Assembly: GCA_016699955.1 (NCBI GenBank)
Contig: CP064993.1
Location: 210,001-242,000, forward strand
Origin: Candidatus Saccharimonadota bacterium
Lineage (GTDB): Bacteria > Patescibacteriota > Saccharimonadia > Saccharimonadales > UBA4665
Direction: 5' to 3'
Length of the DNA: 32,000 nucleotides
Below, piece after piece: positions 2,262-30,284 of this stretch (positions are counted from its first letter, which is position 1; each line of letters opens with the position of its first letter). The notes beneath the pieces are model-generated. The model was not told the origin of the DNA. It saw only the letters and a list, made by a program, of their open reading frames with translations, and did not search any database. The translations under genes were made by a program, and so were the position numbers.

Positions 2262-3314
2262 ATTAACCTCCCATACATCTTGCACACTTTCATCACCTCA
2301 CTAAAGTAGAAAGGAGTGAAAGTGAGATACCGCAAGATGACAGAGAAACAATTGCTCGTGTATGGAGCACGGATTCGTTTAGGGTGGTTTCGTAAAGCCG
2401 AAGAACTCGGGAATGTTGCGGCAGCCTGCCGGTTCTACGGCATTCCTCGACGAACATATTACTACTGGCATAGTCGCTGGGTGAGTCAGGGCAAAGCCCT
2501 GACGAGCCTGTACGATATGCCTCGTACGCCAAAGAGCCACACTAATGACGCCGATGACGAGGTAGTGAGTCTCGTCGTGCAGCTTCGCCTTGGTCTTGGT
2601 TACGGCGAAAATGCTCTTGCGCATGTCCTCAGGCGGGATTACGGCGTCGCCACATCTGTGCACGGTGTCCACAACATCCTGAGCCGAGCAAAGTTACTAG
2701 AAGAGCGCAAAAAGAAGGTACGCAAAACCCGCCAGCTCAGTGACCGTGAGTATTACCCGGGCGAAGTCGGACAGATGGATGTCAAACATTGGAAGCGCAA
2801 AGGCTACCAGTATGACATCGTCGACTGTGCTACGAGGATAAAATACAAACGGATCTATCCTGGATGCGACCCTGCGACAACGGTAGATTTTCTTGAGCAT
2901 GCGGTCAGGTTCTTTGACCCAGCTTTCAGGTTCAAAGGGATTCAGACCGACAATGGCACAGAGTTCACCTACGACCATTTGCCGCAAGTGAGACCGGAAA
3001 CAGAGTGCCCGACTGTCCGGTGGCTCAGAGAACATGGGATTGAGCACCTCCGCATCCCGCCGTCATCGCCACATCTCAACGGTCGAGTCGAGCGACCGCA
3101 CGGAGTAGACAAGGATAGATACAAACGGCTAACAACGAATTCGCACACACTTGTCGAATTAAGAGAGTTTTGTAACGAAGATTGTCTCGACTACAACTTT
3201 TACCGACCGCATAGTATGCTAGACATGATGACACCGATTGAATACCTGCAAAGCTTGAAGGGTTACGAGCAGGCGACGGTGGATACTAGTGTGCTAGATG
3301 TTCGGTAGGTGGAC
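2262..3314 (+). mobile_element. IS481-like insertion sequence (1053 bp, single DDE transposase ORF)
   Basis: The imperfect terminal inverted repeats match at 20 of 27 positions: left 2262- ATTAACCTCCCATACATCTTGCACACT, right (reverse complement from 3314) GTCCACCTACCGAACATCTAGCACACT. Both begin directly next to the 17-bp direct repeat. The single ORF fills the element. Confidence 0.75.
2316..3308 (+). CDS. DDE (rve/integrase-core) transposase, IS481-family-like
   Basis: N-terminal HTH-like region (GIPRRTYYYWHSRW). Catalytic-triad context: GQMDVKHW, IQTDNGTEF, PHLNGRVERPHG. It is a single unframeshifted ORF of about 330 aa. The likely true start is the GTG at 2322 (AAGGAG at 2311-2316) or the ATG at 2337. 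Confidence 0.85.
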   Translation: MKVRYRKMTEKQLLVYGARIRLGWFRKAEELGNVAAACRFYGIPRRTYYYWHSRWVSQGKALTSLYDMPRTPKSHTNDADDEVVSLVVQLRLGLGYGENALAHVLRRDYGVATSVHGVHNILSRAKLLEERKKKVRKTRQLSDREYYPGEVGQMDVKHWKRKGYQYDIVDCATRIKYKRIYPGCDPATTVDFLEHAVRFFDPAFRFKGIQTDNGTEFTYDHLPQVRPETECPTVRWLREHGIEHLRIPPSSPHLNGRVERPHGVDKDRYKRLTTNSHTLVELREFCNEDCLDYNFYRPHSMLDMMTPIEYLQSLKGYEQATVDTSVLDVR

Positions 3315-5300: not shown

Positions 5301-5530
5301 GGTATCAGTATTACACGTGGACTCCCAAAGTCACAACTCACTTGATAGCCCTCAGGCAATGCGCGAAAACCCCACCCCGAAGTAACGAAATGGTCAGTAT
5401 TGCATACAGTTTGCATAATATACATTATAGTGATTATTACAACTTTTTGTTGTAAAATAACAATATTGCAACCAATTGTCTTGAGGAGTATTAGTAAGAG
5501 TGGGCACAAATTTAATGTTTGGGGGGTAGC

Positions 5531-7600
5531 ATGATTAGTCAAAGAATCCAACTTGTAAAAACACAGATAGAACGTGTTAAAAAAAGGCTATACCGTCAAT
5601 CGATTCTCTTTCGGGCATTGTCCGTCTTAGTAGTTCTGGCATTGGTTATACCAATGAATATGCTAGGGCAAGTCAGGGCTGTATCAGATTTGGCTCCGCC
5701 AACTCTTGTTGCAGCGAGTATAACCTCTGGGGCTACGATGAATACCGAGAATACGACATACCAAGGCTACAATGAGCTACTAGTGAACGTCCAAGCCAAC
5801 GACGATTTATCCGGTAGCCAAGCACCCCTCATCGTATACACCTCGCCTTCCGGAAACCAGACTGCCAGCGGGGGCTCAAACGGCGTAGACGCCTCCGAGT
5901 GGATTTCGATAACAAGCTTCCCACAATACTCAGAAGCAGGCGTCTGGACGCCCACAATGTACCTAGAGGACTACTCAGGCAACAAAGTTACCTATACAGA
6001 TTCGCAGTTACAAGTTATGGGCATAAATATCGACGTAACACTGACCGGGCAAGGTGATACGACAAATCCGGAGCTCGTCAGTATCACGCGAATTGGTCCT
6101 GGGGAATTAGACGTAACCGGCTACATCCCATCTACCAATTTCACCGTGCATATGACAGATAATGTTTCAGGCTTCGGTATCCCAACGCTCACCTATACTT
6201 CTCCCTCAGGTAATCAAGTAATGGCTCCGGCCGTTTGTAATATCATGGACGGGCATACATCAACCGTTGCGGACTATGATTGCGCAGCATACTTCAACCA
6301 ATATTCGGAGACGGGCATATGGACACCTGACCTCTTTATAGCTGACGGAGCTGGCAATATAGTCCACCTGTCAAATAACGAACTACTCGCCCGTGGAATC
6401 GATGCCCGAGTATCTATTGTAGGAACAAGCGATACTACACCACCTACCTTGTCGGATGTTGATGTCACGTTTGCTAATCCTCCGGCAGATAACATACCGT
6501 TTGGGGGTGCTGTGATGACATTGACGGGAACAGTAACCGATAACCTCTCAGGTATCAACGGCACGTCATACATCGGGTACACCTCGCCGACAGGCAAAAC
6601 AGTGTACGGCTCATTGCATATTCCTGAAAATAACGGTGTATTCATTTCCGACGTTTTTTTGCCCTTGTACGCCGAAGGTGGCACTTGGCTGCCGACTATC
6701 TTCGTCCAAGACCCTGCTGGGAATCAGCGTACTTACTCAGTTAGTGACCTAGAGGCTCTTGGGTCGAACATTGCTATAACTGTGTCAAAAAATATCACAG
6801 AGAATGCCACGCCTGGCGGTACGGTAACCTCTGACTATGAAAATGACGGCGCTACATCAGCTAACCCTATCGAGGCTAGCGTCACTACACCAACAGGTGG
6901 ACCGGTATCCATCGTCATCGTACAGTCAGACGACATAAACAGCCCAACGAATAGCTACACGTTCTTTGACCGGCAACTGAATATCACGGCGCCTACCGAA
7001 ACTGTGGAGAGCCCACTGACTCTTAGTTTCACTATCGACTCGTCTGTGGTGCCTTCCGGTGAATCGGCAAGCACCTTACAAATAACCAGAAACGGCACGG
7101 TCGTATCAGAATGTACCGATCAGACGACTGCTACGCCGAACCCCTGTGTCTTCTCGCGTCAGACTCTGGGCGGAGGAGATATATTGGTCCAAATCCATTC
7201 TACGACCGCGAGTGCATGGGCGTCAGGGTTCCCAACACATACAAGCGACTACAATTTTGTTGGGTTCAGCGGCGGAACGAAAGATTACTCGAAAGTAAAT
7301 AAAGCTCAAGCAGGGCAAGTACTTTCGATAGAAATGAAAATCAAAGATGTGCCTCATGGTGTTACTGACATCTTAGCTGCCGGCGAACCGACATCCCAGC
7401 GAGTAAACTGCAGCACGCTTGCAACTATTGGCTCCCCGGAAGCTACACTATCGCCTAAGAATAGCGGCTTAGAAAGAATAGGTAAGAACAAGTTTGAGTA
7501 TGATTGGCGAACCGTTAAAAGTTGGGAAAACACGTGCCGCGTATTCAACGTTCAGCTCATAGATGGCAGCAGCCAGAAAGCACTGTTCAAGTTCCAATAA
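5531..7600 (+). CDS. secreted/anchored surface protein with three tandem ~120-aa Ig-like repeats and a Cys-containing C-terminal beta-domain
   Basis: Start placed at the ATG at 5531, with a GGGGGG run (5516-5526) upstream; the track start at 5519 is TTG. N-terminal hydrophobic anchor or signal (ALSVLVVLALVIPMNMLGQVRA). The repeats span 5687-6793 and share D-x-x-x-P-x-L ... D-(N/D)-(L/V)-SG ... YTSP(S/T)G ... (Q)YSE(A/T)G-W-(T/L)P ... D-x-(S/A)GN. The C-terminus (F-x-G-F ... N-K-A-Q-A-G ... C ... Y-D-W-R-T ... W-x-x-x-C-R ... L-x-D-G ... F-K-F) resembles a domain I recall from other secreted proteins. Confidence 0.8.
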   Translation: MISQRIQLVKTQIERVKKRLYRQSILFRALSVLVVLALVIPMNMLGQVRAVSDLAPPTLVAASITSGATMNTENTTYQGYNELLVNVQANDDLSGSQAPLIVYTSPSGNQTASGGSNGVDASEWISITSFPQYSEAGVWTPTMYLEDYSGNKVTYTDSQLQVMGINIDVTLTGQGDTTNPELVSITRIGPGELDVTGYIPSTNFTVHMTDNVSGFGIPTLTYTSPSGNQVMAPAVCNIMDGHTSTVADYDCAAYFNQYSETGIWTPDLFIADGAGNIVHLSNNELLARGIDARVSIVGTSDTTPPTLSDVDVTFANPPADNIPFGGAVMTLTGTVTDNLSGINGTSYIGYTSPTGKTVYGSLHIPENNGVFISDVFLPLYAEGGTWLPTIFVQDPAGNQRTYSVSDLEALGSNIAITVSKNITENATPGGTVTSDYENDGATSANPIEASVTTPTGGPVSIVIVQSDDINSPTNSYTFFDRQLNITAPTETVESPLTLSFTIDSSVVPSGESASTLQITRNGTVVSECTDQTTATPNPCVFSRQTLGGGDILVQIHSTTASAWASGFPTHTSDYNFVGFSGGTKDYSKVNKAQAGQVLSIEMKIKDVPHGVTDILAAGEPTSQRVNCSTLATIGSPEATLSPKNSGLERIGKNKFEYDWRTVKSWENTCRVFNVQLIDGSSQKALFKFQ

Positions 7601-7641
7601 ATACACAGATGCGGCTCAGCGTCTAACGCCAGCCGATAAAC

Positions 7642-7673
7642 ATCAGCGCCATCACCATAACGGTGGCGCTGAT
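7642..7673. terminator. hairpin between convergent genes (probable bidirectional terminator)
   Basis: ATCAGCGCCA (7642-7651) pairs perfectly with TGGCGCTGAT (7664-7673) across a 12-nt loop. It sits between the stop of 5531..7600(+) and the stop of 7714..8256(-), with T-rich sequence downstream on the plus strand. Confidence 0.6.
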
Positions 7674-7713: not shown

Positions 7714-8256
7714 CTAACGAAGAATACGAAGGCTATCGAAGAAATCTCGCCATTCCTCATTGGTAAAGTTGACGGATGGTTTTGCAAATATAAGTGTGCC
7801 TGCTTTGTTTGCTACTGCAGATTGTCCCCCGTTTAATTCTTTGGGGCGAGTGAGAGCTACTGTCCCGAATCCTATCTGGAGCTCATCATATTCGTTGAGG
7901 GTGTTGAGCATCCTGCTGTACTGGGTTGGTACATCTGCGAATGCCCCTGGTGTAGGCTGTTCATTCAATACCACCTGTCGTCCAGTACTCGCTTGTAAGG
8001 CGTGGAGTGTCAGAACCCCGCTTTCTTTGTCGTAGCTGGTCCGATCTTTTTGCAGCTGCCACACTGTGTCTAACTTTGTTGTATCCCCTGGGTAGAAAAT
8101 AATGAAGTCAGCCTGATCGAGTATCTGTTGGCTTATAACCGTCCGACTTTCAGCCATCTGTTTAAGCACAAAGGCACCAGCAGCAACCACGATGACACTC
8201 AAGAGGAGAACTGTAAAGGTTACGACCAGGCGACGTCTCGTTTTTTTATAAGCCAT
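7714..8256 (-). CDS. small N-terminally anchored extracytoplasmic protein (partner of the upstream large exoprotein gene)
   Basis: A 180-aa ORF with basic residues followed by a TM helix (KKTRRRLVVTFTVLLLSVIVVAAGAFVL). Its ATG lies 2 nt after the stop of 8259..9947. The architecture matches 14859..15419. Confidence 0.7.
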   Translation of the reverse strand: MAYKKTRRRLVVTFTVLLLSVIVVAAGAFVLKQMAESRTVISQQILDQADFIIFYPGDTTKLDTVWQLQKDRTSYDKESGVLTLHALQASTGRQVVLNEQPTPGAFADVPTQYSRMLNTLNEYDELQIGFGTVALTRPKELNGGQSAVANKAGTLIFAKPSVNFTNEEWRDFFDSLRILR

Positions 8257-8258
8257 GC

Positions 8259-9947
8259 TTAGCGTTTGTCTATGAAAGTTACTATTGAACCTGCGCAGTT
8301 ATCGGCATTGGCCGCACAAGCAGTAGCACCACTCCATACTGTTCGAGCATTGCCAAGCACATTATAGATGGTTCCGGTACCTTCTGTCGGTTTGGTCGCC
8401 ACCGTGCGAGCATAGCCTGCTGTTGCCGAAGTGAATAGGTACGAGTTTACAGTATTTGAACCAGTGATTGCTTTGACTGCAGCCGGTCCTCCGGTTGCCA
8501 TGATTGCGTTGATTGTAGTGGTAGACGCTGCCCCGGTTGTCGCGACTATAACGCCTCCGATATTATTAAAATTTGCTGTAGTTGTGCTCTGAACAACACC
8601 CTTGGTAGCAACGAAGGTGACAATAGTACCGATGCCGATGGCGCTATTAAGCGCCACAGTAGCCTTTTCGGTCGTAGTGTATGTCCTAGTATCGTAAATC
8701 TGCGTAATGGTGTTGTTGGCACCGGTAAAACCAATATCTGCCAGACACAATATAGGGGACGTGGCAGACGGGAAAGATACGGTGGCGAGGTTCGCTGTTT
8801 CAGTTCCCGATGCAGAAAGAGCTGGCTGATTATTTGCACCTGTAAGACATAGGTGCTGGAACCTGGCTGCAACGGCGTTTGTCGTGGTAGCCGTACCTGC
8901 AGTAACTATGACTTTCCTACCGCCAGAATACGCGGTGCATCCTGTCCAAGAAACAGTTGTCGTGTTCGCCCCTACCGCAACCTTGCATGGACCATTAATT
9001 GCTGCTGTTACACCATAAATATCCCCGGGGTTTGCTCCACTGTCTGGCAGGACACCGAATAGTTGTAGTCCCAAGCCGGCAGTTGACACCATGTCTTCCC
9101 AGGTACCATTGACACAGCCTCGGATGACATTTGTACTGGTGTTATAGTACAGGCCGCCCTGGTTCGTAGTAGTGCCGCATGTAGCGGTGTCCGCGAATGT
9201 GCTGAATGAATCGAGCTGGAGCAATACTTGCGTGGTGTCAGTGGCGTTCGAGCCTATTACTACCTCACTACCGCTTGTGTCGGCACTAAGTATGGCAACA
9301 CTACCAGTAGATTGGATTTGGAAAGCCGTGGCGGAGTCTGCTTGGTTCTTCATAAGTACCGCTCCGTTATTTCCCACCGAGAATACCGTGGCACCATTTC
9401 GTTGCAAGTCCATCACACTCGCAGTTGCGCCTGTCTTATTGACACCAATGGAAGCGCTGGTGGTAGACGTGTCGCTCTGTACCCCCTGCGCAAGCTGTAC
9501 GAATTGGGCGCTTGTGAGCCCATCAACTTGGTCGGCATTGAAAGCATACGGCGAGGCGGTGAACTGTATACGCGGCGTCATTTCCGCATCTGCCCCGACT
9601 TTTACCCCCAAGTACAGCGAGTTTGTGTTGAAGTCGACGCTACCAGGCAGGCTAGTCACGCTCCCAAGAGAAACCTGAAATATTCCGTCTGCGACTGACA
9701 CGGAAGGCTGGGTCTCTGTCCACACTGCCGAACCGCCCGAGCTAACGGTGTAAATACTGAAAACAATTGAATATGCCCCATTAGTGACATTTGTCCCATC
9801 TGGGTTGGTCAGCTTACCTTGGAAATTTATCTGCTGGTTGATGGCAGCGTCGGTGTGTGGGGAGCTTAGGAAAAAGGCCATGCCGAATAGCAGGCAAACC
9901 GCCAGAAAAACCGCTCCTTTTACCGCTCTTTTTTGTATACCAAACAT
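8259..9947 (-). CDS. large secreted Thr/Gly/Ala-rich surface protein, tail-fibre-like/adhesin-like
   Basis: Signal peptide (AVFLAVCLLFGMAFFLSSPHTDA). The N-terminal module is INFQGKLTNPDGTNVTNGAYSIVFSIYTVSSGGSAVWTETQPSVSVADGIFQVSLG...LYLGVKVGADAEMTPRIQFTASPYAFNADQVDGL, a pattern I recall from tail-fibre-like surface proteins. Paired cysteines occur throughout. Confidence 0.75.
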   Translation of the reverse strand: MFGIQKRAVKGAVFLAVCLLFGMAFFLSSPHTDAAINQQINFQGKLTNPDGTNVTNGAYSIVFSIYTVSSGGSAVWTETQPSVSVADGIFQVSLGSVTSLPGSVDFNTNSLYLGVKVGADAEMTPRIQFTASPYAFNADQVDGLTSAQFVQLAQGVQSDTSTTSASIGVNKTGATASVMDLQRNGATVFSVGNNGAVLMKNQADSATAFQIQSTGSVAILSADTSGSEVVIGSNATDTTQVLLQLDSFSTFADTATCGTTTNQGGLYYNTSTNVIRGCVNGTWEDMVSTAGLGLQLFGVLPDSGANPGDIYGVTAAINGPCKVAVGANTTTVSWTGCTAYSGGRKVIVTAGTATTTNAVAARFQHLCLTGANNQPALSASGTETANLATVSFPSATSPILCLADIGFTGANNTITQIYDTRTYTTTEKATVALNSAIGIGTIVTFVATKGVVQSTTTANFNNIGGVIVATTGAASTTTINAIMATGGPAAVKAITGSNTVNSYLFTSATAGYARTVATKPTEGTGTIYNVLGNARTVWSGATACAANADNCAGSIVTFIDKR

Positions 9948-10028: not shown

Positions 10029-11345
10029 TTATGCTTTGCGTGGTGTTTTCCGAGCGGTGGTTCTTTTTACGGTTTTCTTCGTGCTCGCTCCCTTACGCGG
10101 AGCTGCTGTTTTCTTCTGAGAAGTTGGCTTGGTACTCGCCTTGGACGATGTCTTTTTGACCGGTTTCAAATCCTTGGTAACTTTTACTGGAATGCTGCGT
10201 GGAGCATGTGCAGTTCCTTTTTCGGCTATGTGCTTAACAATCATTTTAGCTGCGCTTTTTCTTGCTCTCGCCTTTGTGGCTTCATGGTGTGCGTAGAGTG
10301 CGGCGCCGCCCAATTTACGGGGGCGTGCAGTGCCATCAGATGTTCGCTTGAAAAAACGAAAATAAACACGCTTTCCGCGTTTGAACGGCCATCGTAAAGC
10401 CTTGGCTAGGCGCACTACCATTTTGCGATATGGTATATGTTTTAGGTGCGCCCGTTGCCACCACACGAGCAGTACGATAACCCCAAGGAAAAGTACGTCG
10501 ACAAACGGTACATACCAGAATGTTTGCTGCTTAATAAGCTCAACGTCACTACCGTCTATCCTGTACATCGTCTGCATGCGGATATGCTTGGGAAACCAGG
10601 TATGTAACACTGCTTGCACTGGGGCAGAATAGGTTGCTTTTTGCCTAGGGAACAGCAAACGCGATTCAGTGTTGACCACGGCGCGAGCGAAAAGCTGTTG
10701 GCCGTTCGTGCTGTAAAAACTTACGCTTGCTCTTGGGACAACATGGGCATTTCCGCTATTTCGAAACGTCAAATCGACGCTACGGGGCAATCCGAAAGGG
10801 CTATGCTTTGCCTGTAGTTTCTGCAGCTCAAGATTCGTACGTAGACCTTCAGCATTGACCACGAAGACACTCACTGCGACAGCTGGCCGAAAGGCAAGTG
10901 CAGCACGGGCAGCCCCCTGTTCCGTAATTACTAGATTGGCATAGTGCCCGCCAGGTGCAAGCGGCTGCGTGCCGTTCACAACAAGTTGTAATTGTACCTG
11001 TCCATGAGCCGGAATCGTCAGGTCTGTATTGGAAATCGATAACGCCTTAGCGAAGCTGCCAGTCAGCGGACTGGTCGGCACAAGTCGTGCGCTGGACTCG
11101 TCAATGGATCGAAGCTCGGCTGCAAGCCGAACAGTGGAAGCATAATTGTTAGTGATAGTCACACTTGCTTCGGTACCGGGCTTCTGGCGATTGACCGTCA
11201 GACTTATCTGCGCTGGCGAGACGGTTAAGCCTGTTTTGACGGAACCAGCCTGAGCACCTGCCCTCGATGGGCACAGCAGAAAGATTGCTCCGGCCACAAA
11301 GAGCAAACTGTACGCTATTACAGAAAGATTACGGCTTCGTATCAT
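10029..11345 (-). CDS. exported two-domain beta-sandwich-like protein with a C-terminal TM anchor and a long basic cytoplasmic tail
   Basis: Start placed at the internal ATG at 11345 (MIRSRNLSVIAYSLLFVAGAIFLLCPSRAGAQA signal). The mature N-terminus reads GLTVSPAQISLTVNRQKPGTEASVTITNN. A second domain (VDLTFRNSGNAHVVPRASVSFY...) is followed by the TM helix FVDVLFLGVIVLLVWW and a 142-aa Lys/Arg/Thr/Ala-rich tail. The architecture matches the upstream gene. Confidence 0.75.
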   Translation of the reverse strand: MIRSRNLSVIAYSLLFVAGAIFLLCPSRAGAQAGSVKTGLTVSPAQISLTVNRQKPGTEASVTITNNYASTVRLAAELRSIDESSARLVPTSPLTGSFAKALSISNTDLTIPAHGQVQLQLVVNGTQPLAPGGHYANLVITEQGAARAALAFRPAVAVSVFVVNAEGLRTNLELQKLQAKHSPFGLPRSVDLTFRNSGNAHVVPRASVSFYSTNGQQLFARAVVNTESRLLFPRQKATYSAPVQAVLHTWFPKHIRMQTMYRIDGSDVELIKQQTFWYVPFVDVLFLGVIVLLVWWQRAHLKHIPYRKMVVRLAKALRWPFKRGKRVYFRFFKRTSDGTARPRKLGGAALYAHHEATKARARKSAAKMIVKHIAEKGTAHAPRSIPVKVTKDLKPVKKTSSKASTKPTSQKKTAAPRKGASTKKTVKRTTARKTPRKA

Positions 11346-12408
11346 CTTGATGTGAGGCTTTTTTGCTACGACGAACTTTGCGCGACGTCGCACCCACGGC
11401 TCGACCGAACGAACGAAGTATAACGATAACCCCGATGATGAGCACGATGATAATAAGCAACAGGCATAGTAGCATCCGCCATGGTATGACCCAGAAGCTT
11501 AGTTCGGCCATGACAGGCGTATCGCGCTGACCGTCGTTGTAGACAGCCACAACCTTGGCGACATACCGACCCATACGGAGCTTGCTAATACCCCCCTTCC
11601 AGACGAGCTTTTGCTTTTTTGTACCATCCGGTTCTGTAACGGTTTCGTAGTGTGGGAATCCATCGTCCCACTCAGCCACAAATGTCCGCGTCGTCCCTGG
11701 GATGATGAAACCACCGTCTTTGTTTAGCGCCAACGTGGCGAGTGGAACGGTATCGCTGGAGTGCCTCTGGATAAAGACGGTACCGGTCGGTTGCACATCG
11801 GTGTTGCCAGTATTTTTCAGCTTGATAGAAACGCTAGCAGGAAGATACTCATAGGTACGCTTGCTGAGTGATACACTTTTGAGGCTGAATTGCCGGACTG
11901 CGCCAGGCCGATCGACATTAACGAGCGTGAAAACTGCGACCGAACCTGCAATAGCCGACGTACCTTTGGCAGCCTTGGGTGGGTTCTGTTGTGCGATAGT
12001 TACTGCAAAATTATAGGTAAACGCGGCGTCAGACGTTGTGTTGATATGAATACGCTGGGTGAATATCTGACCGGCCTGAAGCGTAAATGTCGGCTCTTCG
12101 AATCGTACAAGCTGCTGTATTGCCTGTGACGGATTATCACCAAGGCTGACTTGCTCGGTTGTTTCATTGACCGTAAATGGCCTCAGACCCATTTTGAGCG
12201 CCTGTGTCGTCGTATTGGTATTACGAATTTGCAGTTCAAGAACAGTATTAGTACCAGGTCGTACTGTCGTCACCAGAGGCGAAGGGCTCACTTGCAGCGA
12301 AAAACCTTGTTCCGCAGCATGAGCCGTCGCAAAATGCATTGGTACGAAAGCGCAGGCTACGACGAAGCCGACAGCGACATGACGCAAAACTTTAGATACC
12401 CTCTTCAT
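11329..12408 (-). CDS. exported two-domain beta-sandwich-like protein with a C-terminal TM anchor (DUF916/DUF3324-like architecture, by memory)
   Basis: Signal peptide (VAVGFVVACAFVPMHFATAHA). The mature N-terminus reads AEQGFSLQVSPSPLVTTVRPGTNTVLELQIRNTN. A second domain (VSIKLKNTGNTDVQPTGTVFIQ...IIPGTTRTF...MGRYVAKVVAVY...FWVIPW) is followed by the TM helix LLCLLLIIIVLIIGVIVIL and a short basic tail. Confidence 0.75.
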   Translation of the reverse strand: MKRVSKVLRHVAVGFVVACAFVPMHFATAHAAEQGFSLQVSPSPLVTTVRPGTNTVLELQIRNTNTTTQALKMGLRPFTVNETTEQVSLGDNPSQAIQQLVRFEEPTFTLQAGQIFTQRIHINTTSDAAFTYNFAVTIAQQNPPKAAKGTSAIAGSVAVFTLVNVDRPGAVRQFSLKSVSLSKRTYEYLPASVSIKLKNTGNTDVQPTGTVFIQRHSSDTVPLATLALNKDGGFIIPGTTRTFVAEWDDGFPHYETVTEPDGTKKQKLVWKGGISKLRMGRYVAKVVAVYNDGQRDTPVMAELSFWVIPWRMLLCLLLIIIVLIIGVIVILRSFGRAVGATSRKVRRSKKASHQDDTKP

Positions 12409-14858: not shown

Positions 14859-15419
14859 CTATTTCCACTGCCAGTTGGTCACGACGGCTTCCAGAGTACT
14901 CTCTAGGTCGGCTTTGTGTACCGATGAGCCACTCACGACCACTGCTGCGTAATTTGAGCCTTGAGCCCAGTACACAGCCGTTTCATATGTATCTGCTTTC
15001 GTAAAAACTAGCGCACTCGCTGGTGCGAATGGACGGGTCGAGACCGCATATACGTCCGACTGTAATCTACGCAGTTTTATCGCCGAGAGCTCTTCCAACT
15101 GCATTGTCCCGAGCGTCCCTACCGTCACCCCCAGTTGATCATCCCGTCTGAGCAAAGTAGACCCCAGCAGATATTGGCCCGTGGTCATACCCTGCGCTAC
15201 CTCGTTGCTACTGACAACTCTCAGGCTACTCGGTGCTCGAGTAATGAAATGTTCGGTTTTCCAAGTGAAAAGCTTCTCCTGACTGCCAAGAACCGCCCTG
15301 CTTTCCTCTTGATCAGTTGTGACCACCGTGGTTACCGCGGATTGATTCCACCAGATAAAACCCCCGGTGCCAATACCAAGCACAATGGCTGCCGCAATCC
15401 CAATGAGCCATTTTTTCAT
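14859..15419 (-). CDS. small N-terminally anchored extracytoplasmic protein (partner of the upstream PKD-motif protein gene)
   Basis: A 186-aa ORF with an N-terminal TM helix (WLIGIAAAIVLGIGTGGFIWW). An ATGA start/stop overlap joins it to 15416..16396. Size and architecture match 7714..8256. Confidence 0.7.
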   Translation of the reverse strand: MKKWLIGIAAAIVLGIGTGGFIWWNQSAVTTVVTTDQEESRAVLGSQEKLFTWKTEHFITRAPSSLRVVSSNEVAQGMTTGQYLLGSTLLRRDDQLGVTVGTLGTMQLEELSAIKLRRLQSDVYAVSTRPFAPASALVFTKADTYETAVYWAQGSNYAAVVVSGSSVHKADLESTLEAVVTNWQWK

Positions 15420-16396
15420 TTGCGTTTTGTGCCTTTTTTAACCGATTTGATTGTGGACTGCTCCAGTCCTGTCTCGTAGCGATGTTTCGCACGTTGATAC
15501 CCAAACCTGTACGTTACAATGAAGATAAAGTTAAAAAATATAAAGTAGGCTGCATAATACCAGCCCGCCCAATCCGTATTTGATTGAGGAAACGTGCGAA
15601 CACTACCACCTTTTGATTGATCCGGTGCATTACCCGTGTTGCTGACAACGGCGTAAATATATTCTGTGTAGCCACCCCTCGCATCTCTGACACGCAGATG
15701 GACCGGATAGGCCTTGGCTGTTCGATATGTATGTGTAAACTCATACATGCCCGCTAGGTTGATACTGTGTGACTCTGTCGTGCCATCCCCCCAGTTGAGA
15801 GCTAGCACGTAGGGGCTCTCGCCTCCGCCAATCACAACACGTATCGTCGCCTCAGTATTCGAGGAGGTAACGAAGCTGAAAGGATCCTGGGTAGTCACTG
15901 TTAGGCCACTTTCGCTCCCAGCGTTTGATGCCCCTGTTTGCTGCTCATTTGAACTCGGTTGATTGACAGAGGGAGGGAGCGGCTCCACCACAACGGCTTG
16001 GGTGAACGTAACGACCCTAGCAGCACTGTCTGGCCCAAACACACCATTGACGTTTGCCGTTCGCGCGATGAGAGTATTCTGGCCAGGACTTAGTGCAATC
16101 TGCAGACTGTATAATCCGGATGTGCAGCTTGTTGAACCTAGTATTTGTCCGTCACGCCAGACAGAGACTACTCCTGGTGGTGCGATGGATTCACATGTAC
16201 CACTTACTGTTTGCAGGGCATTTTGAAACGTCATACCGCCAGTGGGTGATGCGATAGTCGCTGCCTGTGAAGGTGCCGGGTAGGGCACCACCGCGTTGAC
16301 GTTATAATCTTCAGCAAAAACCCAGCGTGTAGAAACCGCGCCAATCATCACGACGAGCAATAGGACAAGAGCAAGATAGTGTCGTCTGTATCTCAT
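15416..16396 (-). CDS. exported protein with an Ig-like region, a PKD-like motif and a C-terminal TM anchor
   Basis: Signal peptide (LALVLLLVVMIGAVSTRWVFA). PKD-like signature: NWGDGTTESH...HTYRTAKAYPVHLRVRDARGGY. C-terminal TM helix (WAGWYYAAYFIFFNFIFIVTY) followed by a basic tail. Confidence 0.75.
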   Translation of the reverse strand: MRYRRHYLALVLLLVVMIGAVSTRWVFAEDYNVNAVVPYPAPSQAATIASPTGGMTFQNALQTVSGTCESIAPPGVVSVWRDGQILGSTSCTSGLYSLQIALSPGQNTLIARTANVNGVFGPDSAARVVTFTQAVVVEPLPPSVNQPSSNEQQTGASNAGSESGLTVTTQDPFSFVTSSNTEATIRVVIGGGESPYVLALNWGDGTTESHSINLAGMYEFTHTYRTAKAYPVHLRVRDARGGYTEYIYAVVSNTGNAPDQSKGGSVRTFPQSNTDWAGWYYAAYFIFFNFIFIVTYRFGYQRAKHRYETGLEQSTIKSVKKGTKRK

Positions 16397-23235: not shown

Positions 23236-23853
23236 TCACCAACCGTTCGCAAGCTCCTTCTTAAGAATGTCTATCATCTTCTTGTTTTCTTCATAGTCCG
23301 CCATGAAATCGAGATATTCTTGCGAGCCGGGGAAAAGCTCAAGTATGCGTTCCTGGCGTAGCCATGTCTCTTGGGCTCGTTGCAAATAATACGGCAAACT
23401 TGAGTATGCGTAGTCTCGCCATTGGCGAGGATTTAGGTGAATATACCTTGTAATATGCATGAGATACGTATCGTCCGAAATCATAGTGGCTCGAAACCTC
23501 GACTCAAACAGGGAACCACTTCGGCCGTACTTCTTATTAAAGTAACGGCTATAACTTGTCATGATGCTCTGCATGAGACTTGTAAGCATTTTTGCATGCC
23601 TTTGATACACAAGCAGATGAAAGTGATTTGGCATAAGGCAATACGCTAACAAATCGACTTTATTGTAGAAATTTGGGTACGAAATACCATACGGGTCTTT
23701 CGCTTCTTCGGGAGATAAATAACGGGCAAAAAGGTTAAGAAAAGTTAGATAATCTTGCTCGTCGAGGTATATGCGGTGTCGACTATTACCGCGCGCATAT
23801 ACGTGATAATAGTTTTCAGAAGCGTCCACCCTAGTGGTATTTCTCCTTGGCAT
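23236..23853 (-). CDS. Y1 HUH tyrosine transposase, REP-associated (RAYT) / IS200-like family
   Basis: YYHVYARGNSRHRIYLDEQDY, the HUH motif in AYCLMPNHFHLLVY, YSRYFNKKYGRSGSLFESRF, and the catalytic-Tyr region ITRYIHLNP. 205 aa. Confidence 0.8.
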   Translation of the reverse strand: MPRRNTTRVDASENYYHVYARGNSRHRIYLDEQDYLTFLNLFARYLSPEEAKDPYGISYPNFYNKVDLLAYCLMPNHFHLLVYQRHAKMLTSLMQSIMTSYSRYFNKKYGRSGSLFESRFRATMISDDTYLMHITRYIHLNPRQWRDYAYSSLPYYLQRAQETWLRQERILELFPGSQEYLDFMADYEENKKMIDILKKELANGW

Positions 23854-23901: not shown

Positions 23902-23942
23902 AGAATGGTTTGCGGTTGTGGTTTTTGGTATACTTATACGCA

Positions 23943-25766
23943 ATGCGTGTATCAGATAGTTTGGTGGAGAAGCTACTGGCGTCGACTGGAAAGTTCAGCG
24001 ACGAACAGCTTGAGTCTCTTCGCAAACAAGAAAAGAGCGAGAAGAAGCCATTGCAAGATGTGGTTGTTTCGAGCAACACGCTGAGCGAGAAGGAACTGAC
24101 GCAGCTGTATGCCGCCGAGATTGATGTTCCTTTTGTTGAATTCGTGGCTCGTGATTTGCCAAAAGAGGTGCTAGAACTCATTCCCGAACGCGTCGCTCGG
24201 CAGCACCGTGCAGTGGCATTTCAGACCGATGAAGATGGTGTCGTATTTGTGGCCATGGAGGATCCCGATGACGTCCCAGCCATTAGCTTTCTCCAGAAAC
24301 AACTTGGAAAACCAGTCCGTATCCACATCGCAACGACGACGACTGTGCAAAACGCGCTCGATGTCTACAGCGGCGACGCCAGCAACGTGGGCACGGAGAT
24401 TGAACGAGTTATCGCAATTCAGGAAAAGGACGACGGCGATGAGATTGTCGACAAAGCTGATGTGGCAGAAGATTCCCCCATTGCCCAGACGGTTAACCTC
24501 ATCATCGACTACGGTGTAAAAAACAGCGCCAGTGATATACACATTGAACCGCGTGAAAACTTTGTGGTGGTACGGTACCGAGTTGATGGTATTTTGAGGG
24601 AGGTCAATAAACTACCCCGTAAGGTACTCGGCGCCCTGGTGTCGCGCATAAAAATCCTAGCCAACCTCAAGATTGACGAACACCGTGCCCCTCAAGACGG
24701 GCGATTCAAAATAGTCGTAAGTAATCATGTCTACGCACTTCGTGTCTCTACCCTGCCTATAGTTGACGGGGAAAAGGTTGTTATGCGTATCCTCGACGAA
24801 TCAAGCAAGCCCGCCACACTAGAAGACCTTGGCTACTGGGGCAGCGCGCTTGAAGCTGTGCAACAGGCTATTGTACAGCCACACGGCATGGTACTGGTCA
24901 CCGGGCCGACCGGATCTGGCAAGTCTACCAGTCTTTTTTGTATCCTAAGTATGCTTAACAGCCCTGGGGTAAACATCAGCACGGTCGAAGACCCTGTGGA
25001 ATACCGAATATTTGGAGCCAATCAGACACAGGTGAACCCACTCGCTGGCATGACCTTTACTAGTGGCCTCCGAGCCCTGCTCCGCCAAGATCCAAACATC
25101 ATTATGGTAGGCGAGATTCGTGACGGCGAAACAGCTGACTTAGCTGTCCAAGCCGCCCTAACTGGCCACCTTGTATTCAGCACCCTCCACACTAATAACG
25201 CAGCCACTTGCCTCCCCCGCCTGCTCGATATGAAGATTGAGCCGTTTCTCATTGCCAGCACTGTCCGAATAGTTATTGGCCAGCGCCTGGTAAGAAGACT
25301 CTGTATTGATTGCCGTGAATCATACACCCCGGATGACGCGCATCTCACAAAACTCTACAAGATATTTCAGTTGAAGACCGGCGACACTATGAAGCGTTTA
25401 CGTGAGCTTGAACAATCCGCACTAGATGCAGGTATCGGCGCAACGAACCCGAGCAAATCAAATGCTGTCGACCCCGCTACCCTTTCCATGTCCACCAGCG
25501 AAATCGTACGATTGTGGCGGGCGCACGAAGATGGTTGTGATACGTGCAACCATACTGGATATCACGGCCGAATAGGCATTTATGAAGTACTTAGGAATAC
25601 CGATGAAATTCAACAGATGATTGTTACTAATTCGACAAGCGACAAGCTTCAGGAACAAGCGTTACTTGATGGCATGCTTACAATGCAAATTGACGGGCTC
25701 GTGAAAGCCTTGCGAGGGCAGACCTCAATAGAAGAAATCTTGCGTGTGACGGCAGAAAAAGCGTAA
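23943..25766 (+). CDS. pilB: type IV pilus assembly ATPase PilB (GspE family)
   Basis: N-terminal GspE-N-like domain, Walker A GPTGSGKST, Asp box, Walker B/His box (IMVGEIRD...TGHLVFSTLHTN), and a tetracysteine motif CIDC...CDTC. Start placed at the ATG at 23943 (MRVSDSLVEKLL); the track start is a TTG at 23910. Confidence 0.9.
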   Translation: MRVSDSLVEKLLASTGKFSDEQLESLRKQEKSEKKPLQDVVVSSNTLSEKELTQLYAAEIDVPFVEFVARDLPKEVLELIPERVARQHRAVAFQTDEDGVVFVAMEDPDDVPAISFLQKQLGKPVRIHIATTTTVQNALDVYSGDASNVGTEIERVIAIQEKDDGDEIVDKADVAEDSPIAQTVNLIIDYGVKNSASDIHIEPRENFVVVRYRVDGILREVNKLPRKVLGALVSRIKILANLKIDEHRAPQDGRFKIVVSNHVYALRVSTLPIVDGEKVVMRILDESSKPATLEDLGYWGSALEAVQQAIVQPHGMVLVTGPTGSGKSTSLFCILSMLNSPGVNISTVEDPVEYRIFGANQTQVNPLAGMTFTSGLRALLRQDPNIIMVGEIRDGETADLAVQAALTGHLVFSTLHTNNAATCLPRLLDMKIEPFLIASTVRIVIGQRLVRRLCIDCRESYTPDDAHLTKLYKIFQLKTGDTMKRLRELEQSALDAGIGATNPSKSNAVDPATLSMSTSEIVRLWRAHEDGCDTCNHTGYHGRIGIYEVLRNTDEIQQMIVTNSTSDKLQEQALLDGMLTMQIDGLVKALRGQTSIEEILRVTAEKA

Positions 25767-25876
25767 TAAACAAGGAAGGGGCCGTGACGAGCAAGAACTT
25801 GCTTATCTTATAAACTAGGTACGTCATAGTAGAATCTATGGTATCGGGTCGCAAGTTGCGCTACTATTTAAAGCAT

Positions 25877-27088
25877 ATGCTCTTTACCTATAAAGCTCTG
25901 CGAAAAGACAATTCCGACGTATCGGGCACTATTGAAGCCGCCGACCACGAAGCGGCTATGGCTGCGCTCGCTCGCCAAGGGCTACGCCCCCTGCTAGTCT
26001 CAGCTACCGCTACAAAAAAACGCTTTGGCTTTAATAAAAGAGTCAAAAGTAGCGATATGGTGATATTCACTCGGCAGCTGTCCACAATGATTTCTGCCGG
26101 TGTGCCAATTGCGCGAGGGCTCTCAACCCTCCAAGAAAGCGCCGACAGCGCTTACTTCCGTGAAATTCTTGGCAAAGTAACCAAAGATATTGAAGGTGGA
26201 ACACAGCTCGGCGATGCATTCGCAAAATTCCCTAATATTTTTGATGAGGTCTATGTAAACATGGTTCGGGCCGGTGAAGAAGGGGGCATACTAGACGACA
26301 TCCTGAAACGCCTCGCCGTTCAAGTTGAGCAAAACGCAAGCATAAAAAAGAAAATTAAGAGTGCCATGGCATATCCGGTAGTAATTCTGAGCATTACGGT
26401 TGTGGCTTTTTTTGGGATTATGTTTATCCTCATGCCAAAAATATCAAAAATTCTACTCGACTTGGGTGGGCCAAATGCAAAACTGCCTGTCTACACGCAG
26501 ATATTATTAGACTTGAGTCATTTCAGCCGCAAGTACGCTTACATCATGATTCCGGCTATGGTTCTGGTAGTATGGGCAATCCGGCGGTACATACGGACTC
26601 CAAAAGGAAAATATCAATTTCATTCTTTGTTACTTCGCCTACCTATCGTAAAGACTATTGTCACTAAAATAGCAATCGCACGTTTTTCCCGAACTTTCGC
26701 CTCACTCATGTCTGCCGGCGTGGGCGTGCTTGATTCGCTATCAGTTACAGGGGGCGCCATTGGCAACAAAGTTATCGAAAAGGAACTCGCCGAAGCAGCC
26801 GCCGAGGTAAAGAATGGCAAACAGCTATCTGAAGTAATCGGTCAGAGTCCACATTTTCCACGAATAGTCGCCCAAATGCTTGCGGTCGGTGAAGAAACCG
26901 GCACAACCGACACCGTACTGATAAAAGTGGCCGATTTTTACGAAGAAGAGGTTGGGAACGCTATCGATGGCCTTGCGTCAGTAATTGAACCTGTGATGAT
27001 ACTTTTCCTCGGCGCTGGGGTCGGGCTAATCGCAGCCAGTGTCATGGGGCCAATTGCCAGCATGAGTAATAACGTCGGTACTAACTAG
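25877..27088 (+). CDS. pilC: type IV pilus platform protein PilC (GspF family)
   Basis: Two GspF-type repeats (FTRQLSTMISAGVPI..., FSRTFASLMSAGVGV...) and three TM regions. Start placed at the ATG at 25877 (MLFTYKALRKDNSDVSGTIEA). Confidence 0.9.
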   Translation: MLFTYKALRKDNSDVSGTIEAADHEAAMAALARQGLRPLLVSATATKKRFGFNKRVKSSDMVIFTRQLSTMISAGVPIARGLSTLQESADSAYFREILGKVTKDIEGGTQLGDAFAKFPNIFDEVYVNMVRAGEEGGILDDILKRLAVQVEQNASIKKKIKSAMAYPVVILSITVVAFFGIMFILMPKISKILLDLGGPNAKLPVYTQILLDLSHFSRKYAYIMIPAMVLVVWAIRRYIRTPKGKYQFHSLLLRLPIVKTIVTKIAIARFSRTFASLMSAGVGVLDSLSVTGGAIGNKVIEKELAEAAAEVKNGKQLSEVIGQSPHFPRIVAQMLAVGEETGTTDTVLIKVADFYEEEVGNAIDGLASVIEPVMILFLGAGVGLIAASVMGPIASMSNNVGTN

Positions 27089-27118
27089 GCGAGTAACCAC
27101 GCGGTATAGATAAAAGAC

Positions 27119-27146
27119 TTGACGTTGTTCCGCTTACGGTTATAAT
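27119..27146 (+). promoter_or_regulatory. strong sigma70-like promoter of the major pilin gene (TTGACG-16-TATAAT)
   Basis: TTGACG at 27119-27124 and TATAAT at 27141-27146. The leader of about 60 nt contains a hairpin (CTTACGG-GCTTT-CCGTTAAG) and an AAGGAGGGTGGG Shine-Dalgarno. Confidence 0.65.
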
Positions 27147-27212
27147 CAGAGGCAGACTTACGGGCTTTCCGTTAAGCAATATAAAATCTACATATAAGGA
27201 GGGTGGGCCCCT

Positions 27213-27692
27213 ATGGTTTCACTAAAGAATAAAAAAGGCTTCACAATCGTCGAGCTTTTGATTGTGATAGTCGTCATCGGCATTTTGGCGACGCTTGTTA
27301 TTGTCACATTTACCGGTATCCAACAAAAAGGTCGAAATAGTCAACGTCAAACAGACATTAACGCAATTCAGAGCCAGGCTGAGGCTTTTTACGCGCAGCA
27401 CGGTTTTTACCCCACACTTGCTGACCTACAGATTGCAACAGCTCCTACTTTCATACAGACATATATGAAGGGTCTACCGGCAGATGCTCTTAAGGATCCG
27501 AAGGGACCGACCGTAACCATTACGGGCACTACCGACGCTGATCAATACAGCTACGTTGCAAGCGGAACTGGTTGTACTAACACAACCGCTACAACCATCA
27601 CTGCTGGTGAGCCAGTAGAGAACGGCTGTGATGCCTTTGTCGTGACGGCAACACTTGAGGGCGGAACTACCTACAGCAAGCAAAGCAACTAG
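27213..27692 (+). CDS. pilA: type IV major pilin (prepilin with a class III signal peptide)
   Basis: MVSLKNKKG/FTIVELLIVIVVIGILATLVIVTF carries the G/F cleavage site and Glu5. There is a C-terminal Cys pair (GCTNTT...ENGC). 159 aa, with a strong promoter, Shine-Dalgarno and terminator. Confidence 0.9.
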   Translation: MVSLKNKKGFTIVELLIVIVVIGILATLVIVTFTGIQQKGRNSQRQTDINAIQSQAEAFYAQHGFYPTLADLQIATAPTFIQTYMKGLPADALKDPKGPTVTITGTTDADQYSYVASGTGCTNTTATTITAGEPVENGCDAFVVTATLEGGTTYSKQSN

Positions 27693-27708
27693 CCCTGCTA
27701 CTGTGTTT

Positions 27709-27736
27709 AAAAGAGACCGTTTATTCGGTCTCTTTT
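27709..27736 (+). terminator. rho-independent terminator after the pilin gene
   Basis: AAAAGAGACCG-TTTATT-CGGTCTCTTTT forms a perfect 11-bp stem whose 3' arm ends in TTTT. It lies 17 nt after the stop. The A-run on the 5' side would let it work in both directions. Confidence 0.85.
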
Positions 27737-27913
27737 AATTAAACCGTGGCGAAATGCTGTGACGAGGTATCTTAACCCTATTCCTGTACCAAAATCGGGC
27801 CTGTTGCTAAGTACTTTTAGTGACACTGGGGTAAGAATAGCTCCTTGCCTGGCGAAGAGTGTGCCTAGCGAATCGATAATCCTGCTATAACCTAGCACCA
27901 CTGCTAGCGACAT

Positions 27914-27990
27914 CAGGCGTTAGGCGAGCGATGCGAACCCTACAGAGGCACCCCGCTTAAACACTGCGCTTACGCCGAGATCGGGTTAGG
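27914..27990. repeat. copy B of the ~80-nt conserved intergenic element (copy A at 14741..14822)
   Basis: Same three conserved blocks and same orientation as copy A. It lies in the 317-bp non-coding gap between the convergent pilin and minor-pilin genes. Confidence 0.7.
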
Positions 27991-28053
27991 GGCTACGGAG
28001 TTCATGCGCCTTTTAAGCATGTAGGCGCCGCGGGTATACTGGACGAGAAAGCA

Positions 28054-29664: not shown

Positions 29665-30284
29665 AAATTTGTCTTTCTATTGCGCAGTGTGACCTGTAGT
29701 TCCATTGTTTGATCACCGCCACCTGCCGCTACAGTTTGCGTGGACATGGTTACCCGAATACCTTTTATAGATATCAAGTCGCCAATTGGCAGCGGAATAG
29801 CCGAGCCCGCTGAGCTTAAGTAGGTAAATAGTGTTCCTCCAGATGGTTGATATAAATCGTCGATAAGCGTAAAAGTTCTCATTTGTGCTGTAATCTGCGT
29901 ACCAAGGGGTGGATTGGCAGTCATTGGCGTCAAATCGGCTTTGAGTTGTTTTTTTGAGCCGGTAGTTACAACATAGTATCGCAAATGAGAAACGTACGTG
30001 TCTGACGGATAAAAATACGCGTAAACAACCAGTTCGTTCGCACCGGCCGAAACAACCTGAGTTGTGCCACGAAGGACGTTACTGACGCGACTAACCTGAT
30101 GGTCGAGGTCAGTAAAACCCGTTGCATCCTTTTGCAAGTCTAGGTAGCTGAACAAACTCGTACGGAAAAATACCATGAACGTGACGCTCAATGTGGCGAT
30201 AAGCGCTATCGTAATCATCAGCTCAACAAGTCCAAATCCGGCCTCGCTACAACGAGCTTGTGTCTGAAACTTATGGTGTGACAC
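29661..30284 (-). CDS. type IV minor pilin (prepilin-type N-terminal cleavage/methylation domain)
   Basis: Start placed at the GTG at 30284 with GGAGG 6 nt upstream. The resulting leader is (M)SHHKFQTQARCSEAG/FGLVELMITIALIATLSVTF. The track start at 30332 would give a 32-aa leader lying inside the upstream gene. Confidence 0.75.
   Translation of the reverse strand: MSHHKFQTQARCSEAGFGLVELMITIALIATLSVTFMVFFRTSLFSYLDLQKDATGFTDLDHQVSRVSNVLRGTTQVVSAGANELVVYAYFYPSDTYVSHLRYYVVTTGSKKQLKADLTPMTANPPLGTQITAQMRTFTLIDDLYQPSGGTLFTYLSSAGSAIPLPIGDLISIKGIRVTMSTQTVAAGGGDQTMELQVTLRNRKTNL

Follow-up and report, generated by a model that had tools for sequence, protein, structure and literature searches.

Thin filaments of Candidatus Mycosynbacter amalyticus have been solved by cryo-electron microscopy (Troman et al., June 2026 preprint; bioRxiv 10.64898/2026.03.03.709456), and the filaments of PamA (WP_260763287.1) and PamB (WP_260763280.1) (PDB 25PZ and 25QA) were found to assemble by donor-strand exchange. 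Besides these pilins, the Pam operon carries genes for PamE, for the single-domain tip pilin PamT and for PamR, an RbmA-like protein with a membrane helix, as well as for two predicted chaperones, PamC and PamD, with a fold like that of FimC/PapD plus a C-terminal transmembrane helix. The authors proposed usher-less assembly by membrane-anchored chaperones; their preprint mentions neither WxL nor DUF916 (10.64898/2026.03.03.709456). Here we describe two adjacent genes, A and B, in a 32,000-nucleotide (nt) stretch of a Candidatus Saccharibacteria metagenome-assembled genome (GenBank assembly GCA_016699955.1, contig CP064993.1, positions 210,001 to 242,000 of the forward strand; hereafter the window, with NCBI locus tags IPL85_01140, IPL85_01145 and IPL85_01150). 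We consider it likely that A and B are Sec-exported, C-terminally anchored two-domain chaperones, PapD-like/WxLIP-like, and belong to the same class as PamC and PamD.

Two further systems are relevant for comparison. WxLIP is the new name of the DUF916-DUF3324 protein of WxL/Csc clusters; it consists of a signal peptide, two perpendicular immunoglobulin-like (Ig-like) domains and a membrane helix, and its predicted mode of binding is insertion of a beta-hairpin into the WxL partner (PMC10599100). In Enterococcus, Listeria and Lactiplantibacillus, WxLIP is encoded in a cluster with at least two secreted proteins, predicted or shown to be bound by beta-strand insertion. Its proposed role is to stabilise its partners and anchor them on peptidoglycan, and to bind host, not to polymerise filaments. 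The chaperones of chaperone-usher systems (PapD, FimC, Caf1M, CsuC and CfaA) are two-domain Ig-like proteins that work independently of ATP and are encoded beside pilin genes. Their clients have an incomplete C-terminal Ig-like domain and undergo donor-strand exchange, and the Pam preprint shows the same for the Pam pilins.

Gene A (11329-12408, minus strand; IPL85_01145) encodes the A-type protein of 359 amino acids (aa) and 39 kDa from an ATG start preceded by AGAGGG. Gene B (10029-11345, minus strand; IPL85_01140) encodes the B-type protein, with 438 aa when read from the ATG at 11345 (MIRSRN...). The start codon of B is ambiguous within 11297-11393 (minus strand): the open reading frame (ORF) can be extended to a GTG (10029-11393), and the NCBI product of 422 aa begins at the GTG at 11297, so that its signal peptide loses the n-region and some of the hydrophobic core. 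Starting at the ATG at 11345 yields a canonical signal peptide and an overlap of exactly 17 nt with the stop of A. The first-pass annotation of this DNA, made from the letters alone, had described two genes at these coordinates overlapping by about 17 nt, which agrees with our result. The overlap suggests translational coupling. The same annotation had regarded the genes as a duplicated pair, and A and B are indeed paralogues, with a similarity beyond chance. BLASTP aligned them at 23% identity across the whole ectodomain (E 1e-6), and comparison of the A-family and B-family profiles with hhalign gave a probability of 99.8% (E 1.2e-28, 277 columns).

Both proteins begin with a signal peptide composed of a basic n-region, a hydrophobic core and an AxA-like cleavage site (MKRVSKVLRHVAVGFVVACAFVPMHFATAHA/AE in A, aa 1-31; MIRSRNLSVIAYSLLFVAGAIFLLCPSRAGAQA/GS in B, aa 1-33). 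It is followed in A by domain 1 (aa 36-165, nt 11914-12303), domain 2 (aa 174-307, nt 11488-11889), an FWVIPW juxtamembrane motif, a membrane helix (aa 310-331, nt 11416-11481) and a 28-aa basic tail. B has a two-domain ectodomain with PGGHY and NSGNAHVVPR motifs, an FWYVPF motif and a membrane helix at approximately aa 281-296 (nt 10458-10505). The N-terminal motifs quoted in the first-pass annotation were located at residues 35-65 of A and 39-67 of B. Hydropathy analysis gave a single C-terminal membrane segment in each protein, then a basic segment. The earlier description of a second beta-rich domain and a single transmembrane helix near the C-terminus therefore fits A (helix 310-331); in B the helix is not near the C-terminus but has 144 residues after it. 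These residues form a cytoplasmic tail specific to B-type proteins (10032-10463, minus strand; 144 aa), of low complexity, with 44 Lys/Arg vs. 4 Asp/Glu and a pI of 12.

The topology is a property of the family. A signal peptide, one C-terminal helix and a basic tail were found in all 120 A-type homologues, 19 of 20 B-type homologues and 25 of 28 homologues of a third subtype, T, which is described below; the single C-terminal transmembrane helix is kept in 164 of the 168 homologues examined. Median tail lengths are 162 aa for B-type proteins (with ∼44 Lys/Arg), 25 aa for A-type and 15 aa for T-type. As a feature, the polybasic tail is kept in 19/20 B-type homologues and is absent from the A-type and T-type proteins. 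To our knowledge, nothing comparable is described for pilus chaperones.

The AlphaFold2 (AF2) model of A, built with 40 homologues, had a predicted local distance difference test (pLDDT) score of 90.2 and a predicted template-modelling (TM) score (pTM) of 0.75. It begins with a signal helix (residues 2-21); two all-beta domains follow, at 38-165 and 174-307, and then a long helix (310-351). Judged by homology along the whole ectodomain, B would share this two-domain beta-sandwich fold. Foldseek searches against the PDB, in copies without 25PZ and 25QA, returned WxLIP of Enterococcus faecium as the best match of the A model (9i25_C and 9i1y, E ∼1e-9, TM-scores 0.34/0.45), 9i25_C being WxLIP in complex with a long WxL protein. 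The next matches were CsuC, CfaA, YadV, FimC, Caf1M and DraB (E 1e-8 to 1e-6; from CsuC, 5d6h, E 1.6e-8, to Caf1M, 1p5u, E 3.6e-6), with target-normalised TM-scores of 0.49-0.56. Several of the matched chaperone structures were solved with subunits (CsuC-CsuA/B, CfaA-CfaB, FimC-FimH/FimA, and Caf1M-Caf1). Structural matches to Ig-like chaperones and to a Csc family protein were thus both obtained, and the overall DUF916-DUF3324 (CscA-type) architecture named in the first-pass annotation is borne out by WxLIP as the top structural match of A.

A top match to WxLIP bound to a WxL protein also favours a different explanation, in which A and B are WxLIP-type static adaptors or anchors, stoichiometrically bound to the two pilins (P1 and P2) and the fibre-like protein (F) encoded in the same cluster, and tether these proteins or the filament base to the membrane and cell wall, a role of the kind proposed for DUF916-DUF3324 proteins that hold WxL proteins on Gram-positive surfaces. 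A and B have the same architecture as WxLIP, from the signal peptide through two Ig domains and a membrane helix to the basic tail (PMC10599100), and agree with it in size (337-365 aa) and monoderm-type envelope. The cluster logic is similar too, with one membrane-helix protein beside at least two secreted proteins sharing a C-terminal domain, and the long cytoplasmic tail of B is not obviously needed by a transient chaperone. Pfam searches gave a signal in the same direction: PF06030 (WxLIP_PGBD, formerly DUF916) is the commonest Pfam match of the B/T branch, and within the A family fn3_5 alone is commoner. It was matched by 59/136 cluster representatives (best E 1.5e-6), 14/46 members of the B/T branch (best E 1.3e-5) and 10/40 A-type proteins, and in the relatives checked individually the match spans nearly the whole profile, over domain 1. 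Searched against PDB sequences, both branch profiles found EfmWxLIP1 first (E 0.04 and 0.4), a result that is not significant alone but agrees with the fold and that, like the PF06030 signal, we count in favour of the chaperone explanation.

A and B themselves do not match PF06030, and, unlike WxLIP, they lack both a DUF3324 match and any Pfam match at gathering score. Other results argue against such an adaptor. Neither protein has NQIDKxxxYFDLK, the hallmark of WxLIP, the equivalent region being FSLQVSPSPLVTTVRPG in A and GLTVSPAQISLTVNRQKPG in B. No neighbour or pilin family matched a WxL domain in Pfam, and there was no PDB sequence match to WxL chains; the partners here are two-domain pilins with a donor-like linker, whereas those of WxLIP are WxL-domain proteins. 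We concluded that domain 1 is probably a remote homologue of DUF916, which falls short of membership of that family. The DUF916/DUF3324/PapD relation put forward in the first-pass annotation therefore stands as far as the structural matches to WxLIP and chaperones and the sub-threshold DUF916 signal go; strict membership is not supported, there being no match to DUF3324, PapD_N or PapD_C.

A third explanation is a stand-alone function of A and B as Ig-like surface proteins, either adhesins or envelope spacers, in which case their adjacency to pilin genes would reflect a shared surface regulon and no role in assembly. Tandem Ig ectodomains on a membrane helix are common in adhesins, the family shows weak fn3_5, CARDB and FixG_C matches, and Foldseek also finds generic tandem Ig proteins with A; as the Foldseek list of A shows, one tandem Ig fold is readily matched to another. 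Unlike that of host-facing adhesins, the ectodomain shows strong conservation (mean column identity in the A family 55%, with 40 invariant columns), and the best matches are subunit-binding chaperones and WxLIP. Together with the strict, subtype-specific gene order with pilins across 79 genomes, presented below, this makes the stand-alone explanation very improbable.

A and B lie within a run of eight genes on the same strand. The run is headed by a gene for a PamR-like protein (15416-16396, minus strand; 326 aa, containing a PKD-like region and, at the C-terminus, a membrane segment). This ORF matched the NCBIfam model NF058578 CPR_pilus_PamR at E 1.7e-35 and 122 bits (cut-off 300) over profile positions 37-288 of 297; PamR-like proteins of related loci scored 119-171 bits, and the gene is present in 64/79 loci. 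Between it and P1 lies a gene for a small N-terminally anchored protein (u186; 14859-15419, minus strand; 186 aa), found at this place in 27 loci. Pilin P1 (13657-14700, minus strand; 347 aa) is a paralogue of pilin P2 (12510-13571, minus strand; 353 aa) in the linker and C-terminal domain, where they are 34% identical. P2 consists of a signal peptide, an N-terminal beta-sandwich, then a linker strand, and finally a C-terminal domain ending ...YTDTITVVGAGLF. Genes A and B follow, and directly downstream of B is a gene for a fibre-like secreted protein, F (8259-9947, minus strand; 562 aa, 57 kDa), rich in Gly, Thr and Ala. The last gene of the run encodes another small N-terminally anchored protein (7714-8256, minus strand; 180 aa), with a similar ORF in 2 related loci. 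The 186-aa and 180-aa proteins each have one N-terminal membrane segment and no family match. No usher family was detected among the 27 ORFs of the window that were scanned against Pfam, and Rfam and tRNA scans gave nothing within the cluster. The PamR-like protein is already a separate candidate for an anchor, which speaks against A and B as static anchors.

Between the stop of P2 (12510) and the start of A is an intrinsic-terminator-like hairpin followed by T7 (12486-12458, minus strand), with a 12-bp stem, 9 GC pairs, a free energy of -30.8 kcal/mol and a z-score of -3.6, the strongest in the region. The first-pass annotation had placed a terminator after the subunit gene, and this was confirmed. 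A strong terminator between the pilin gene and A fits an excess of pilin over a catalytic factor more readily than a stoichiometric adaptor, but it is not conserved. A conserved attenuator at this position was considered and rejected as a general feature; the hairpin was seen in ∼12 of 75 related loci.

The P2 family carries an invariant alternating linker between its two domains (D184 I186 V188 A190 V192 F196 F198) and an invariant C-terminus (...DYxDTxTxxGAGLF). An invariant donor-like linker of this kind is typical of polymerising subunits, a further point against static adaptors. Taking this together with the missing hallmark, the lack of WxL domains in the neighbours and the separate PamR-like protein, we regard the adaptor explanation as unlikely. 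P1 and P2 alone in the window carry the pilin C-terminal domain profile; therefore, two pilins face two chaperones. P2 is unusually conserved for a surface filament subunit, its top 120 homologues being 60-88% identical, with 83 invariant columns. The AF2 model of P2 had a mean pLDDT of 59, with a confident N-terminal domain and values <50 in the linker and C-terminal domain. Such low values would fit a domain dependent on strand donation. A PDB search with the P2 model returned generic Ig matches, such as BslA and YcnI, which are uninformative on a groove or a WxL-like fold. Assignment of the pilin C-terminal domain to a WxL or SCPU type was tried and rejected, as there were no Pfam matches and no PDB sequence matches.

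Residues 32-100 of F matched the NCBIfam model Bdello_MAT_N (NF053851; N-domain of the Bdellovibrio mosaic-adhesive-trimer (MAT) fibre) at E 2e-6. In related loci, the length of F varies from ∼520 to ∼1,940 aa; F follows B in 26 loci and occurs only where B and P1 occur. F is probably the "tail fibre-like protein" of the Pam preprint. We considered F as an equivalent of PamA and rejected this, since it has no pilin C-terminal domain, a MAT-fibre-like N-terminus and a highly variable length.

To estimate the distribution of the family, we collected homologues and examined their gene neighbourhoods. A has 965 homologues, all from Candidate Phyla Radiation (CPR)/Saccharibacteria where named and none meaningfully annotated; a relative of A is encoded in 482 GTDB species representative genomes. 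The B-branch profile, searched against 1.84 billion proteins, found 8,441 representatives (50% identity clusters) at E ≤ 1e-3 and 1,014 at E ≤ 1e-30. Gene linkage was counted in 79 Saccharibacteria loci, a set to which the Candidatus M. amalyticus genome does not belong, and co-occurrence in the 60 loci flanked by 3.5 kb or more on either side. The A-type gene stands directly after pilin P2 in 75/79 loci. B, P1 and F occur together in 26/60 loci and are jointly absent from 33/60. P1 co-occurs with B-type genes in 27/27 loci and is absent from all 33 loci without B.

In 29 of the 33 loci that do not carry B, P1 and F, the third subtype T (∼290 aa, with a short tail) is encoded a few kb away. 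T abuts a convergent gene of ∼187 aa in 33/33 cases, whose product aligns with the C-terminal domain of P1/P2 and has no N-terminal domain or linker; in one related locus (L020), for example, T (6238-7113, plus strand) overlaps the single-domain pilin (7107-7667, minus strand). From its sequence the ∼187-aa protein looks PamT-like, as expected of a tip pilin. Profile comparisons between the subtypes gave E-values of 2.5e-29 for B-T, 8e-26 for A-B and 1e-11 for A-T, by which B appears intermediate between A and T. The family has at least three subtypes, each tied to its own pilin type.

The locus has much in common with the Pam system. Like PamC (WP_260763277.1) and PamD (WP_260763284.1), A and B come from CPR/Saccharimonadia and combine a signal peptide with two beta-sandwich domains of predicted PapD/FimC-like fold and, towards the C-terminus, a membrane helix. 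Both systems contain two paralogous predicted chaperones and two-domain pilins (putative here) with a conserved linker strand, and neither has an usher gene; the membrane-anchored PamR of the one has as its candidate counterpart in the other a PamR-like protein that scores below the cut-off. The order PamR-like, P2, A mirrors pamR-pamB-pamC, which suggests by synteny that A corresponds to PamC, and the combination of T with a single-domain pilin resembles the PamD-PamT pairing. In mild conflict with A as PamC, it is A that has a beta-hairpin more than B (residues 253-269), and in the preprint the protein with an additional hairpin is PamD. The full gene orders differ: here it is PamR-like, u186, P1, P2, A, B, F, with the chaperone genes adjacent and overlapping, and in M. 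amalyticus it is pamC-pamB-pamR-pamD-pamE-pamA-pamT. The ∼144-aa polybasic tail of B has no mention for PamC or PamD in the preprint.

With the chaperone-usher chaperones, A and B share the two-domain Ig-like fold and the position beside pilin genes. Unlike them, A and B are anchored by a membrane helix and not soluble, no usher or outer membrane is involved, and PapD_N and PapD_C are not matched. The clients here have an extra N-terminal domain and would donate an internal linker, whereas chaperone-usher clients donate an N-terminal extension.

By analogy with the chaperone-usher paradigm and the Pam preprint, a tethered chaperone pair could act as follows. P2 and P1 would cross the membrane via Sec with a C-terminal Ig-like domain that is one strand short. 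The chaperone would capture this domain by filling the open groove with a beta-strand of its own, likely the G-strand of domain 1 (GSVAVFTLVNV in A, AVAVSVFVVN in B), which has a long loop before it, as in PapD-like chaperones. Residues 155-165 of A form a conserved alternating G-strand in the family alignment, in which R62 is invariant. The captured pilin would stay folded and be held at the membrane surface, and the invariant alternating linker strand of the next pilin would then displace the chaperone strand by donor-strand exchange. The filament would grow without ATP and without an outer-membrane usher, and the PamR-like protein would anchor its base. Because of the co-occurrence pattern we propose a division of labour in which A probably serves P2 and B probably serves P1; B may possibly dock the downstream F as well. 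The first-pass annotation had suggested an assembly or anchoring factor for the neighbouring subunits, and this is supported by the fold, the upstream pilins, the co-occurrence, the PamR-like gene and the reading of PamC and PamD in the preprint.

Several observations weigh against A and B as tethered pilus chaperones. The Foldseek TM-scores are modest (0.3-0.56) and the root-mean-square deviations are large, and generic tandem Ig/ASH proteins (CEP192 SPD-2/ASH, ciliary central-pair proteins and RbmA) score similarly. Since ASH and MSP domains are commonly classed with the PapD-like fold, the matches are coherent. No Pfam or NCBIfam chaperone model was reached by A or B; in NCBIfam no chaperone-type model was returned for A, B or 40 A-type relatives, and PamR was the sole Pam model returned. 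The PF06030 matches in relatives are all below gathering score (16-25 bits in those checked individually vs. a cut-off of 27.3), and a Pfam search of A, B and 222 relatives gave no match to DUF3324/WxLIP_HBD, PapD_N (PF00345) or PapD_C (PF02753). The low confidence of the P2 C-terminal domain could also be explained by a shallow alignment, in which all sequences are at least 63% identical. P1 and P2 have no match to NCBIfam NF058581 CPR_Pam_pilin_C, which was matched weakly by one single-domain pilin of a related locus (L060, E 0.002), and the PamR match, at 122 bits, falls well short of the curated 300; the system encoded here can therefore at most be a divergent relative of that in M. amalyticus. 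Orthology with PamC and PamD, moreover, is drawn from architecture and synteny. On balance we regard the tethered-chaperone explanation as likely.

Some other features of the window were also recorded. A type IV pilus gene set occupies 23910-31818, 7.5 kb from the Pam-like cluster. Its members are a PilB-type ATPase (23910-25766) and PilC (25838-27088), together with a pilin carrying an N-methylation motif (27213-27692) and, on the minus strand, a large pilin-like protein (30271-31818). Two different filament systems are therefore encoded close together. A 693-aa secreted or anchored protein (5519-7600, plus strand) adjoins the cluster; it has repeated Ig-like modules and a DUF7743 match (E 1.7e-6). 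Transposase genes are located at 2316-3308 (plus strand; rve-family integrase) and 23236-23853 (minus strand; IS200-like Y1 transposase), and two tRNA-Pro genes at 891-1088.

The finding is real, and this kind of system is already described in the 2026 Pam preprint. The tie to WxLIP/DUF916, the three chaperone subtypes with strict linkage to pilin types, and the B-type polybasic tail of ∼150 residues appear to go beyond it. We also put forward, as a tentative and rather doubtful extension, that the A/B/T chaperones of the CPR and the WxLIP/CscA proteins of Firmicutes form one ancient family of tethered strand-inserting chaperones in bacteria without an outer membrane, and that the conserved tail of B-type proteins couples assembly of a single pilin or fibre class to a partner in the cytoplasm, for example the nucleoid, ribosomes or acidic lipids. 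If this is true, WxL/Csc clusters and Pam pili would be evolutionary cousins that use the same usher-less principle of capture and hand-over, and the tail of B would be a transmembrane link. We know of no pilus chaperone with such a link.

Through the link to WxLIP (DUF916), which is structural and, more weakly, one of sequence, the system is tied to WxL/Csc surface clusters in lactobacilli, enterococci and Listeria that are still uncharacterised, and the linkage of subtypes to pilins yields chaperone-client pairs that are concrete and can be tested. Descriptions of the Pam pilus have so far come from a single organism, and the locus data indicate that the logic of tethered chaperones is very widespread. 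As Saccharibacteria and other CPR bacteria spend their lives attached to host bacteria, their surface filaments are central to this lifestyle.

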